A stretch of DNA of 64,000 bases, from assembly GCA_020053105.1 (NCBI GenBank), contig JAGVNU010000076.1:72005-136004 (forward strand), written 5' to 3'. Shown here one piece after another: positions 30,601-32,480 of the stretch. The DNA comes from Thermodesulfovibrionia bacterium. Its GTDB lineage: Bacteria > Nitrospirota > Thermodesulfovibrionia > UBA6902. Every line of letters begins with the position of its first letter. Positions within the stretch are counted from its first letter, which is position 1. The notes beneath the pieces were generated by a model. That model was not told where the DNA came from and made no database searches. It worked only from the letters and a program-made list of their open reading frames with translations. Position numbers and translations under genes: made by a program.

Positions 30601-32074
30601 GAATGTCGCAACAATTACTTATCCCGGTGGAAGGCAAATAACCTACAGCTATAACCAGCTGAATAAAGTCTCGTCCGTCACTGAGACATATCTCGGCGTG
30701 ACAAGGCCCCTGACGGACAATATTACATATCTGCCATATGGGGACATTACCTCCATTACGTATGGCAATGGTATAACGACTACAAAGACGTATGATAACC
30801 GTCATCGTTTGAACAGTTTGACTGTCGAAGCACAGAAGCAGCTATCTTACTCAAGAGATAACGTTGGCAATATCACATCGATAACGGATGTTCTGCATCC
30901 TGAAAAGAACAAGACATACGCATACGATGCTATCAGCAGATTAACGCTTGCCAATGGCCCATGGGGAGCAATCACATATGCGTATGATCCCACTGGAAAC
31001 AGGACATACGAGACAACGGACGCGGGAAGCACTACCTATAATTACACGATCAACACTAACAAACTGGCATCATCTGCAGGAGAAAAGCCCTTCACCTTTA
31101 ACTATGATAATAACGGGAACACGATATCCGAACTGGGCGGGGTGACCCCGCCCCTACAGCGGACTTATGTTTATAATCAGAACCAGAGACTGGTACAGGC
31201 ACTGGAGGGCACAGATAAGCTCGGGGAGTATGTTTATAATGGCAACGGACAGAGGGTGAAAAAGTATACAAATAACGGAAGTCAATGCAGTCTGTTCCAT
31301 TATGATAAAAATGGATTGCTGATAGCCGAGTCCTCAAGTTCCGGCGCTATTAAAGCCGAGTACATATACATAAACGGGCAGCCACTGGCTAAAATAGAGG
31401 GGAACAATATTTTTTACTACCACAACGATCATCTGGGGACTCCGATGCTGATGACAAATTCATCGGGACAAGCTGTATGGAAGGGGGAGTTCTTGCCCTT
31501 TGGCGAACCGTTATCGATTAAAGGCACGGTGACGAATAACCTGCGGTTTCCTGGGCAGTATTTTGATGGGGAGACGGGGCTGCATCAGAATTGGTTTAGG
31601 GATTATTGGGTTGGGGGTGGGAGGTATTTGTCTTTTGATCCGCTATTAAGCACTACACATCGTGCGGCAACCTCTACATGTCGCCAGCCATCAACATATT
31701 TATCACTTAATGAATCAATCAAATCAAATCCTTTTGTTTATACAGAGAATAATCCAATCAATTTTATTGATCCAAAAGGTCTGAAATGTGGATCTGGCTG
31801 GACTGATGATATTGTCCCGGATAGTTATGGGAATTTTAACTTTACGAGCCCCTGTCAAGCGCATGATGATTGTTATGGCACCTGCGGAACGTCAAAGCTT
31901 GCCTGCGATATCTTTTTTTACAATAATATGTTACAAGAATGCCGCAAACTTACATGGAATCCAATAAGTCAATTTAGTTGTATTGAAACGGCAGCAATCT
32001 ACTATGGATTTGTATCAAGCCCGCTTGGCTGGTATGCATATAACAAAGCGCAGAAAGAACAATGCTGTAAATAA
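27665..32074 (+). CDS. Rhs/YD-repeat polymorphic toxin with Sec-type signal peptide and PLA2-like C-terminal tip
   Basis: N-terminal signal peptide (WLILFGLALKTPSEAQT). Dozens of YD repeats (YxYDxxGN). Rhs core end reads YYHNDHLGTPMLM...RFPGQYFDGETGLHQNWFRDY...NNPINFIDPKGL, followed by a 96-aa Cys-rich tip. Confidence 0.9.
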   Translation: MKNRKDIIYCIWLILFGLALKTPSEAQTLLAEFNDGRVHLTGSAAFECYPDGYPYGSSAVVTRFHAFSEFVTSGGKNISVNVFDENAKCKPPGYVFNYIASYSGGLWYYPTPEPVCGKASMEDVHARAVVPSWPEIIMHEPQDIVSGLTDITFNYQYFQYYDIDRRIQVYLNNNEKIYDSQNLSESGTIQKTYDFSNKKGFILLSVMQSCAGQVVPFEKLLYVEPEDSCQDKVGKPVSVSSGTVYANETDFSVKGAMPLTFIRYYDSTETMSRDFGVSWSHVYDTRVVLIGANTYKVINPDGSDIYYIDNNNDYIYDVEFPKGEQSKIIKNTNGSFTRDFGDGSKEEFNKWGSLTAVEDSNGNRTALTRDGSNKLTKITGPYGREMNILFGTGNKIKSITVPDGSPGGRVYSYTYLPSGYLGKVTYPDASERNYEYVYAGVGYRLSGIKDEKGNYIEKHTYDTKGRAVTSSADGTNELLTIDYVDKTHTTVTDSFGHVTTYTLDKTMGKSHATGISGPGCRECGQGNTFKSYNNNLNVTSRTDANGNVTAMTYDANGNMHTTTDAAGTGEERTNTYTYNSFGQILTATDPDGNTSEYIYDANGNMIEETDAQGNITTHTYSPYNEKLSTTDRNGNVTTYTYDQYGNKETITNGLGQTTYYIYDLMGNLKSMTDANGNATIYEYDLRDRLIKETRPDGGEVVYEYDAAGNKTASIDAMGNRTTYVYDNINRLIELRTGELPFAPSELTTFTYDSEGNMISKISKDSSESILTYESYTYDNHNRLVRTTYADGAYTEQSYDALGNVLTKRDENGNITTNTFDALNRLASVTDAEGGVTAYTHDSRDNLTSVTDANGNMTFYVYDSLNRLISTASPDTGTTTYTYDANGNMLTKTDANGVTTTYSYDALNRQTVIQFPDASQNIYYAYDDPQTENSSGKLTSMTDPSGTTWYDYDKMGRLIMETRRINALNYRTGYTYDLNGNVATITYPGGRQITYSYNQLNKVSSVTETYLGVTRPLTDNITYLPYGDITSITYGNGITTTKTYDNRHRLNSLTVEAQKQLSYSRDNVGNITSITDVLHPEKNKTYAYDAISRLTLANGPWGAITYAYDPTGNRTYETTDAGSTTYNYTINTNKLASSAGEKPFTFNYDNNGNTISELGGVTPPLQRTYVYNQNQRLVQALEGTDKLGEYVYNGNGQRVKKYTNNGSQCSLFHYDKNGLLIAESSSSGAIKAEYIYINGQPLAKIEGNNIFYYHNDHLGTPMLMTNSSGQAVWKGEFLPFGEPLSIKGTVTNNLRFPGQYFDGETGLHQNWFRDYWVGGGRYLSFDPLLSTTHRAATSTCRQPSTYLSLNESIKSNPFVYTENNPINFIDPKGLKCGSGWTDDIVPDSYGNFNFTSPCQAHDDCYGTCGTSKLACDIFFYNNMLQECRKLTWNPISQFSCIETAAIYYGFVSSPLGWYAYNKAQKEQCCK
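31784..32074 (+). other. Rhs C-terminal toxin tip: group XII secreted-phospholipase-A2-like domain
   Basis: The tip, after DPKGL (31769-31783), reads KCGSGW...SPCQAHDDCYGTCGTSKLACD..F.......ECRK......SCIETAA....V...G.Y....Q...CC. This parallels my recollection of human PLA2G12A (GCGS...CCNQHDRCYETCGKSKNDCDEEF...ICR...ACETTVE...). The catalytic His-Asp would be at 31862-31867. Confidence 0.65.
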
Positions 32075-32096
32075 ACTTACTTGAGGAAGTCGAACA

Positions 32097-32480
32097 GTGA
32101 AAAACACATCGCTCAAGAAGATCAAAATATTATCTCTCATTTTAGGTTTTTTCTATTGTGGAGGAATAATTTGGTATGGTGAAGTCTTACTCTCATTGCC
32201 TCTTTTGTTAATATTTCTTTTGAGTTCAACTGGGTGTGCCCTAATTATAGCACCTCTGCTTTCTGATACCCTTCTTCGTACAGAGTTCATTAGGGTCTTG
32301 GCTGTAGTACTGATCTTAACTGGAATGGTTGGGAGCCTTTATTCAATAACTGATGCCATTAAATCAACGAGCTATTGGTGGGACGTCCTCGTAGTCATCC
32401 TTCAACATATAGCAATTATTTTTGTGCTCTCTGTAATTGGTCTCAATATTCAGAGATTAAAAAAGAAGCAAAAAAAATGA
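32097..32480 (+). CDS. Small 4-TM membrane protein, candidate cognate immunity protein
   Basis: GTG start 22 nt after the rhs stop, with a GAGGAAG SD. Four hydrophobic helices and a Lys-rich C-terminus. AT-rich like the rhs tip. Confidence 0.5.
   Translation: MKNTSLKKIKILSLILGFFYCGGIIWYGEVLLSLPLLLIFLLSSTGCALIIAPLLSDTLLRTEFIRVLAVVLILTGMVGSLYSITDAIKSTSYWWDVLVVILQHIAIIFVLSVIGLNIQRLKKKQKK

Follow-up and report, generated by a model that had tools for sequence, protein, structure and literature searches.

A 64,000-nucleotide stretch of contig JAGVNU010000076.1 (forward strand, positions 72,005 to 136,004; GenBank assembly GCA_020053105.1) from a Thermodesulfovibrionia bacterium, referred to below as the window, encodes an Rhs polymorphic toxin whose C-terminal tip is, as judged by sequence comparison, homologous over its full length to group XII secreted phospholipases A2 (phospholipase A2, PLA2; secreted form, sPLA2). 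The gene directly behind it encodes a 127-residue membrane protein that, from its linkage and co-variation with the tip, is very likely the cognate immunity protein. The toxin gene and the features of its tip are located as follows.

27665-32074 (+): Rhs polymorphic toxin gene, 1469 residues (open reading frame, ORF; Pfam and NCBIfam matches).
31784-32071 (+): C-terminal toxin tip, residues 1374-1469, 96 residues, group XII-like sPLA2 catalytic core (Pfam, hhalign, AlphaFold2, Foldseek).
31862-31867 (+): H1400-D1401 (CAT GAT) of the HDxCY motif, catalytic His and Ca2+-ligand Asp (invariant as H32 and D33 in the family alignment).
31907-31909 (+): D1415 (GAT) in 'ACD', predicted partner of the catalytic His (D47, at least 90% conserved in the family alignment).

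The 96-residue tip follows the DPKGL motif in the ORF translation and contains nine cysteines (1375, 1397, 1403, 1407, 1414, 1426, 1439, 1467 and 1468), together with every string quoted in an initial annotation that had compared it with human PLA2G12A. That annotation had proposed a profile search, and the tip alone indeed matched PLA2 families significantly, although below the Pfam gathering cut-offs: PF06951 (PLA2G12) with an E-value of 1e-5 and 26.0 bits (19.5 bits for the full protein; cut-off 34 bits), and PF09056 (Phospholip_A2_3, prokaryotic PLA2) with an E-value of 9.4e-5 and 23.4 bits (cut-off 29.4 bits). A word-indexed homologue search with the tip alone returned no relatives, and a sequence search of the single tip against the Protein Data Bank (PDB) gave only E about 1. 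Exhaustive HMMER searching of 1.84 billion cluster representatives retrieved 1,439 representatives at E<=1e-3 and 157 at E<=1e-10. An alignment of 58 family sequences yielded the consensus CGSGW....VPD.....FT.AC..HD.CYGTCG.SK..CD..F..DM..EC-(12)-C...A..YY.AV...G..AY..AQ...C, in which positions C29, H32, D33, C35, Y36, C46, C58, C71 and Y78 do not vary and D47 shows at least 90% conservation; the window tip keeps all of them. Both PF06951 and PF09056 are matched by 56 of the 58 sequences, with best E-values of 2.9e-14 and 4.2e-10, respectively. Individual members pass one or both gathering scores, and related tips reach 35-45.9 bits on PF06951, a score for membership that the window tip does not attain. 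The E-values of the family search, hhalign and BLASTP and the profile scores reject a chance resemblance of cysteine patterns.

The human PLA2G12A sequence used for direct comparison was confirmed by exact look-up as NP_110448.2 (PG12A_HUMAN). The strings given for it in the initial annotation (GCGS, CCNQHDRCYETCGKSKNDCDEEF, ICR and ACETTVE) all occur in the real protein, and the resemblance noted there proved to be homology along the whole tip. Aligned by hhalign, the family and PLA2G12A matched with a probability of 98.7% and an E-value of 2.8e-16 over 93 columns (tip 5-99, human 85-180), spanning the CGS loop, an ungapped HDxCYxTCGxSKxxCDxxF block, 8 of 8 conserved cysteines, the distal Asp and the last helix. 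BLASTP of the window tip alone against the human protein gave 31% identity over 81 residues (E 4e-7). The group XII active-site block C-x-x-H-D-x-C-Y-x-T-C-G-x-S-K-x-x-C-D-x-x-F is present, PCQAHDDCYGTCGTSKLACDIFF aligning without gaps against CCNQHDRCYETCGKSKNDCDEEF, as are the group XII cysteine framework and C-terminal helix (G..Y..Q...C); the Pfam PLA2G12 alignments extend to profile position 174-177 of 184. The likeness to the animal enzyme thus comprises the catalytic core, the CGS loop, an identical active-site spacing, eight family-conserved cysteines and the last helix, with PF06951 as the best Pfam match. The differences lie in the N-terminal part of about 80 residues, which has no counterpart in the tip: no member aligns before profile position 77, only positions ~77-176 of the 184 are covered, and the Rhs core directly precedes the tip. 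Moreover, the tip has nine cysteines, fewer than the human enzyme, and is fused to an Rhs protein from which it would be released by autoproteolysis, whereas PLA2G12A is a free secreted protein; it scores 26 bits against the 34-bit cut-off, and its bacterial family also matches PF09056.

The closest solved structures, by profile as well as by fold, are prokaryotic and fungal PLA2s of groups XIII and XIV (PF09056). Searched against the PDB, the family profile matched Streptomyces violaceoruber PLA2 (1faz/1kp4) at E 8.5e-12 and the Tuber borchii group XIII enzyme (4aup) at 2.6e-11; classical group I enzymes reached only E about 0.4. The His-Asp pair and the distal Asp of these proteins align with those of the tip, but only 2 to 4 of their cysteines correspond to tip cysteines, and they have HDFGYRN with no Cys after HD. 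Their alignment needs a 6-7-residue insertion after the Tyr, between it and the distal Asp, and both the profile and the chains stop close to tip residue 86, at the start of tip helix 4, so that the last helix is missing. In the same search space the family profile gave 64.6 bits for the human group XII enzyme, 49.6 for the bacterial chain and 47.9 for the fungal chain. These scores, the insertion and the missing last helix place the tip family closer to group XII than to the solved prokaryotic and fungal enzymes. In these profile comparisons the tip family bridges PF06951 and PF09056. The label 'eukaryote-type' used in the initial annotation misleads: the domain is common among bacteria, as a bacterial family of 1,439 cluster representatives whose members come from many phyla and score on both Pfam models.

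A structure prediction, also proposed in the initial annotation, placed PLA2 folds first. The single-sequence AlphaFold model (pLDDT 52) gave fold matches at noise level and was discarded for a model based on the family alignment, which reached a pLDDT of 88.9 and a pTM of 0.81, with helices at 26-36, 43-59, 65-83 and 85-99. Judged by its helices and fold matches, this model is consistent with the sPLA2 superfamily, whose helical, disulfide-bonded core carries the His on one helix and the Asp on the antiparallel one. The top two Foldseek matches in the PDB were PLA2s, 4aup (probability 1.00, TM-score 0.65) and 7ygk (0.99, TM-score 0.54); all further matches had a probability of <=0.33. H1400 and D1401 align with the HD of human PLA2G12A, S. 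violaceoruber PLA2 and Tuber PLA2. In sPLA2s, H48 activates the water molecule and D49 holds Ca2+ together with the calcium loop (PMC9863470); D1401, at the position equivalent to D49, is thus the predicted Ca2+ ligand rather than a dyad partner. The initial annotation had placed a catalytic His-Asp dyad in HDxCY: the motif and its catalytic His are present as described, but the partner of the His is predicted to be the distal D1415. In 1faz the residue aligned with D1415 is the 'RID' Asp, presumably Asp85, the partner of His64; in the human enzyme it is the Asp of 'DCD'.

The tip family is carried by proteins of different kinds. Among the top 150 representatives, 89 have a D..G-type motif directly upstream of the domain, which fits tips of the Rhs type, and other representatives are ~120 residues long with a hydrophobic leader directly before the domain, that is, stand-alone secreted PLA2s. 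Seven long homologues carrying the tip contain DUF6531 and RHS repeats, two of them with MopE-like Cys motifs. Related loci (L numbers below) were retrieved with 10 closer sequences, the 58-sequence alignment having no block conserved enough. Their metagenome-assembled genomes (MAGs) are labelled Deltaproteobacteria, Nitrospirae, Verrucomicrobiota, Kiritimatiellia, Planctomycetota, Steroidobacteraceae, Thermoanaerobaculia, Eggerthellaceae and Solirubrobacteraceae, among others. Bacterial proteins of the family already carry precomputed PF06951 matches, and pfam06951 is said to have been reported in bacteria by Nevalainen et al. in 2012.

The gene behind the tip, its start signals and the segment of interest within it are as follows.

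32083-32089 (+): Shine-Dalgarno-like GAGGAAG, 7 nucleotides before the GTG (read from the sequence).
32097-32480 (+): 127-residue polytopic inner-membrane protein, candidate cognate immunity protein, family A, subfamily A1 (ORF, GTG start).
32349-32384 (+): predicted periplasmic loop 3 (TDAIKSTSYWWD, residues 85-96), candidate specificity determinant (positive-inside topology; comparison of A1 and A2).

The GTG start lies 22 nucleotides after the Rhs stop codon, and no terminator-like site was found between the two genes. The initial annotation had described a 127-residue protein with four transmembrane (TM) segments and regarded it as an immunity candidate. The ORF and its four hydrophobic stretches were confirmed, and the comparative data (linkage, co-variation and cassette swap) support the candidacy. 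Ten of its 13 Lys and Arg residues are clustered at the two termini in the hydropathy analysis, which, by the positive-inside rule, suggests a four-helix protein with both ends in the cytoplasm. A profile of the window protein and its homologue at L001, used to search 5.8 billion entries, identified only 13 related clusters, all unannotated, which constitute family A. In all seven independent contexts examined for these relatives a PLA2G12-like Rhs tip is encoded upstream (hmmsearch E 1e-25 to 1e-40), and in five of the seven the family A gene adjoins the tip, with 18-23 nucleotides between the tip stop and the gene start. The two remaining arrangements are L067, where two tandem family A paralogues stand behind the tip, and L073, where a gene of another family (B) and then an orphan A1 copy stand behind a different tip. 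The gene is thus immediately 3' of the tip, co-oriented with it and recurrently linked to the same tip family.

Within family A, the adjacent gene varies with the end of the tip. Subfamily A1 comprises the proteins of the window, L069, L070, L071 and L076 and the orphans of L067 and L073; subfamily A2 comprises those of L001, L075 and the first gene of L067. A1 genes stand behind tips ending ..SSP[LA]GWYAY.., A2 genes behind tips ending ..FGxxPY.. or ..AGYPAY.. (in short, SSPLGWYAY goes with A1 and xFGxPAY with A2), and the pairwise identities of tips and adjacent immunity genes are correlated with a rho of 0.56, obtained from non-independent pairs of related genomes. The comparison with L067 identifies one further segment of the tip.

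31994-32074 (+): last 27 tip codons (end of helix 3, loop and helix 4), exchanged together with the immunity gene in L067 (blastn against L067).

In this comparison, window positions 31618-31993 match L067 5015-5390 with 87% identity, and window positions 32075-32473 match L067 6012-6409 with 86.5% identity. Between the two matching blocks the window has 81 nucleotides, the last 27 tip codons, whereas L067 has 621 nucleotides that encode another tip end and carry an A2-type gene at L067:5478-5864. The unit of exchange is therefore the C-terminal segment of the toxin plus an immunity paralogue, the former A1 gene being retained downstream. Replacement of a tip end with the old immunity gene kept behind it is the displacement pattern typical of Rhs loci, and this co-replacement in L067, together with the orphan copies in L067 and L073, is what would be expected of immunity genes. 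Within the 127-residue protein, loop 3 (residues 85-96) is the least conserved membrane-proximal segment between the subfamilies, with 16% identity between A1 and A2 compared to 43-56% in TM1 and TM2. The same loop is well conserved within A1.

Downstream genes were surveyed at 56 non-redundant related tip loci with at least 350 nucleotides of downstream sequence. A small ORF with at least three TM stretches, starting about -30 to +160 nucleotides from the tip stop, was found at 19 of the 56 loci, an ORF with one or two TM stretches at nine (six of them lipoprotein-like), an ORF without a predicted TM stretch at 13 and no ORF at 15. The small polytopic proteins form at least three families whose hidden Markov models (HMMs) do not cross-match, so that a single family for all downstream TM proteins was rejected: family A is the window type, family B carries the motif SST..PF..VGY, and family C is about 90 residues long with GYLDPF. 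Neither the 127-residue protein nor the B- and C-type proteins matched Pfam, NCBIfam or the PDB. The lipoprotein-like genes, with a signal sequence ending in Cys, are those of L002, L012, L028, L031, L032 and L044, and they imply that the tip family uses at least two architecturally different types of candidate immunity protein. The initial annotation had contrasted the window protein with the lipoprotein type usual for phospholipase effectors; the window gene is indeed polytopic, but some related tips do have lipoprotein-type genes. In some B- and C-type downstream proteins a cytoplasmic zinc-ribbon motif, CxxCGYxLxGLxxxRCPECG, was observed, C-terminal in L023, L029 and L033 and N-terminal in L042.

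The tip is carried by a typical Rhs body, preceded by a predicted export signal and located next to a type II secretion system (T2SS).

27665-27742 (+): predicted Sec signal peptide (MKNRKDIIYCIWLILFGLALKTPSEA, followed by Q), with a basic n-region, a hydrophobic core and an SEA/Q site (read from the sequence).
28364-28585 (+): DUF6531 domain, residues 234-307 (Pfam PF20148, E 3e-16).
28652-31408 (+): RHS/YD repeat shell, limits approximate (Pfam RHS_repeat and NCBIfam YD_repeat_2x).
31496-31783 (+): Rhs-associated core up to the DPKGL motif (TIGR03696 Rhs_assc_core, residues 1278-1373, E 3.5e-15).
16082-27307 (-): type II secretion operon with GspD, GspE, GspF, pseudopilins, GspK and PilM/N-like proteins (Pfam Secretin/GspD_N0, T2SSE, T2SSF, T2SSK, PilM_2 and PilN).

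The source annotation of the 1469-residue product is 'RHS repeat-associated protein', and Pfam RHS_repeat matched it in 20 stretches (E 3.8e-102) and NCBIfam YD_repeat_2x in 14. An RHS core match (PF03527) covers residues 1249-1280, and DPKGL occupies residues 1369-1373 (nucleotides 31769-31783). Rhs proteins cleave themselves at autoproteolysis motifs of the DPKGL type. The protein thus has the RHS/YD shell, the core ending in DPxGL and the C-terminal tip, variable among otherwise similar Rhs proteins, that define Rhs polymorphic toxins. No PAAR or VgrG domain was found by Pfam in this protein or in the seven long homologues, and no type VI secretion system (T6SS) genes were found in the scanned ORFs of the window. 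Assignment as a T6SS effector was rejected on these grounds; the protein is still an Rhs toxin, in which a signal-peptide-like N-terminus takes the place of a dedicated delivery module (PAAR/VgrG or other). N-termini of the same kind are present in the homologous Rhs proteins of L067, L069 and L070. A disulfide-rich enzyme that is exported by Sec and folds in the periplasm would be consistent with these starts. The T2SS operon looks complete and is divergent from the Rhs gene, with a gap of 357 nucleotides. T2SS K/PilN/PilO genes (L073:1980-4703) are likewise neighbours of the PLA2G12-tip locus L073, whose arrangement is different. A functional link between such Rhs toxins and the T2SS may exist, the adjacent system being a lead to a possible export route. 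Between the signal peptide and DUF6531, residues 28-233 (27746-28363, +) gave no match in a Pfam search of these ~200 residues; their start is conserved in L067, L069 and L070 (AQSLSA.F.DGR.HL.GS), and they may be a targeting or receptor-binding module.

Taken as a whole, the locus probably encodes a Sec-exported Rhs toxin with a group XII-like PLA2 tip released at DPKGL, together with its co-transcribed cognate immunity protein. Tip homology, conservation of the catalytic residues, fold prediction, gene linkage, co-variation and the cassette swap were observed here; from these we infer enzymatic activity, the target compartment, the export route (Sec, possibly with the adjacent T2SS) and neutralisation by direct binding. 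The RHS shell would enclose the 96-residue tip during export by Sec, and aspartyl autoproteolysis at DPKGL would free it. The tip would then act as a disulfide-stabilised sPLA2 in which H1400 activates water, D1401 and the neighbouring loop bind Ca2+, and D1415 and Y1404 support the His. Its predicted reaction is hydrolysis of the sn-2 ester of phospholipids in competitor-cell membranes, from the periplasmic or external side. The co-transcribed 127-residue protein would span the inner membrane with four helices, have both termini on the cytoplasmic side and expose only two short loops to the periplasm. Most likely it would bind the toxin at the membrane interface and block its interfacial or substrate-entry surface, and specificity would reside in the last ~25 residues of the toxin and in the second periplasmic loop of the immunity protein.

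Several points weigh against this interpretation. The window tip is under both Pfam gathering cut-offs, the Foldseek E-values are weak (0.09 and 0.12) with root mean square deviations of 5.7-5.9 A, and no group XII structure was found among the PDB sequence or fold matches. The distal Asp is lost in close relatives of the window tip, P0001 and L076 (D47N) and L075 (D47A, with Y36F). Half of the surveyed loci (28 of 56) are without a membrane-type downstream ORF. The number and topology of the TM segments of the 127-residue protein come from hydropathy only, and its predicted periplasmic part is tiny (about 3 plus 12 residues) and offers little surface for binding a 10-kDa enzyme; the tip-immunity correlation has the non-independence noted above. 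Finally, activity, toxicity and neutralisation are deduced from sequence, and the delivery route into a diderm target is not accounted for.

Three other explanations were considered, one of which concerns the target. The Rhs-PLA2 could have eukaryotic cells (grazers or hosts) as its target, or outer surfaces generally, the 127-residue protein shielding the producer's own inner membrane during export or serving general membrane repair and not kin discrimination. Enzymes of the sPLA2 fold are classic anti-eukaryotic components of venoms and immune systems, and the window protein, predicted to be Sec-exported, is encoded beside a T2SS, which is not a contact-dependent injector. A study of extracellular contractile injection systems noted PF06951 in an archaeal toxin candidate and treated the family as mostly eukaryotic (96% of occurrences), the same reasoning being applied to the Halogeometricum candidate (PMC11297309). 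Joint polymorphism of tip end and immunity paralogue, subfamily-specific pairing and the presence of tandem and orphan immunity genes are, however, hallmarks of inter-bacterial toxin-immunity arms races. Shielding of an enclosed tip by the shell is established for Rhs and Tc toxins, and by analogy the RHS shell should already protect the producer here. We therefore regard an anti-eukaryotic or general role as unlikely. Slightly less likely still is that the 127-residue protein is no immunity protein at all: it could be an accessory factor in the membrane on which the Rhs toxin depends for its export, release or maturation, or a mere syntenic neighbour in a few related genomes. It has no recognisable domain, and its 13-cluster family comes mostly from apparently related organisms, so that the linkage could reflect shared ancestry. 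An accessory factor would nevertheless be expected to follow the conserved Rhs body and not the variable tip end, whereas the unit swapped in L067 is the tip end with its paralogue, and L073 has an orphan A1 copy preceded by a different tip and a family B gene. In different phyla, moreover, the equivalent place after related tips is taken by unrelated small polytopic proteins, and polymorphic toxin loci canonically have their immunity gene directly 3' of the tip (PMC3482391).

The remaining explanation, which we consider very improbable, concerns catalysis: the tip could be an inert PLA2-like module, similar to group XIIB or Lys49 myotoxins, that perturbs membranes or binds a receptor and hydrolyses no lipid. 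Inactive PLA2 homologues are well known in animals, the window tip is sub-threshold for both Pfam PLA2 families, and the D47N substitution, or D47A with Y36F, is present in some close relatives. In these (P0001, L076:112-414 and L075:125-427) the His-Asp pair is kept and a family A gene is adjacent, and the loss of the distal Asp suggests that catalysis may not be essential for all members. The window tip itself, in contrast, keeps H1400, D1401, Y1404, D1415 and the conserved acidic residue before VPD, which are invariant or nearly so across the 58 sequences.

PLA2 tips were known on polymorphic toxins before this analysis. The domain Tox-PLA2 (fold 1kp4) was described on RHS and filamentous polymorphic toxins exported by the general secretory (T2SS) route, with no immunity family assigned (Zhang et al. 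2012, PMC3482391). The initial annotation could not tell whether a tip of this kind had been catalogued; PLA2 tips on Rhs toxins had been, in that 2012 survey. Compared to the Tox-PLA2 signature DxC[ST]...CxxHxxxYxN, the window tip has CxxHxxxY, but the N and the DxC[ST] are absent at the equivalent places: Gly-Thr stands instead of x-N, and CGSG lies upstream of WTDD where DGCS would follow it. With 23.4 bits, the window tip also stays below the gathering score of PF09056.

The immunity candidate can be compared with two known types. Phospholipase effectors of the Tle group, delivered by the T6SS, are α/β-hydrolases or have phospholipase D folds, and their Tli immunity proteins are periplasmic lipoproteins. 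The window system resembles them in the predicted antibacterial hydrolysis of phospholipids, in the adjacent immunity gene and, for some relatives of the tip, in lipoprotein-like downstream genes. It differs in its disulfide-rich sPLA2 fold, its Sec-signal Rhs carrier without PAAR or VgrG and its polytopic immunity candidate. Membrane-embedded immunity proteins protect against pore-forming colicins, and Tsi5, which protects against the Rhs toxin Tse5, is likewise embedded in the membrane. Imm-Act1, the immunity protein of the lipid-targeting Salmonella T6SS effector Tox-Act1, is also membrane-embedded, and its authors infer neutralisation at the membrane (PMC12994826). The window protein shares with this type that it is small, integral to the inner membrane and encoded by the gene directly behind that of a membrane-directed toxin. 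Matching to Pfam, NCBIfam and the PDB shows no relationship in sequence, however; the window protein has four predicted helices and Imm-Act1 two, and the toxin paired with it has the sPLA2 fold, where the known cases involve a permuted NlpC/P60 enzyme or a pore former. The system thus belongs to a known kind and is itself uncharacterised; what it adds is a family of membrane immunity proteins absent from earlier catalogues and a cassette swapped in nature, which indicates recognition surfaces.

The genes that follow the immunity gene show signs of decay. At 32561-32618 (+) are the first 19 codons of a Y1-transposase/DnaA_C-type gene (MARQLRIEYEGAFYHITSR), truncated in the window and 79% identical to the start of an intact 323-residue gene in the same position after the immunity gene of L070. 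Abutting this fragment, a 31-residue ORF at 32602-32697 (-) begins MAKEFTVIIEQDEEGYFIAEVPELKGC.., which we take to resemble the N-terminus of HicB-type antitoxins. Neither fragment matched Pfam, and as the ORF abuts the transposase fragment, this appears to be a place where decayed genes meet. At 32728-33000 (-) lies a gene for a VapB-like antitoxin (PF09957, E 8e-10), with no VapC-like ORF downstream. Further away, 39966-42833 (-) encodes a 955-residue Eco57I/MmeI-like fused restriction-modification enzyme (type IIG/L-like) with N6_Mtase and TaqI_C domains. In L070, from a Nitrospiraceae MAG, a patatin-family phospholipase gene (L070:9997-11478, -) is located 3.6 kb downstream of the Rhs-PLA2/immunity pair.

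A broader proposal, which we advance tentatively and hold to be somewhat less than an even prospect, is that a large bacterial clade of group XII-type sPLA2 toxin domains, both Rhs tips and stand-alone proteins, stands nearest among prokaryotes to the animal group XII enzymes and possibly gave rise to them. Its members would be neutralised not by soluble inhibitors but by several unrelated families of tiny polytopic inner-membrane proteins that capture the enzyme at the bilayer surface, with specificity in the last helix of the toxin and a periplasmic loop of ~12 residues, exchanged as one cassette. We know of no natural protein inhibitor of group XII sPLA2. A well-populated bacterial sister family with cognate inhibitors would supply structural handles and inhibitor templates for these enzymes. 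For bacterial competition, the empty immunity column of Tox-PLA2 gains concrete membrane-protein families, and the pair formed by L067 and the window constitutes a compact natural experiment in which the recognition of an interfacial enzyme by a membrane protein can be mapped. The window protein also exemplifies a class of Rhs toxins with predicted Sec export and disulfide-rich tips, which are therefore probably T6SS-independent. Current concepts are extended by these findings, and none is overturned.

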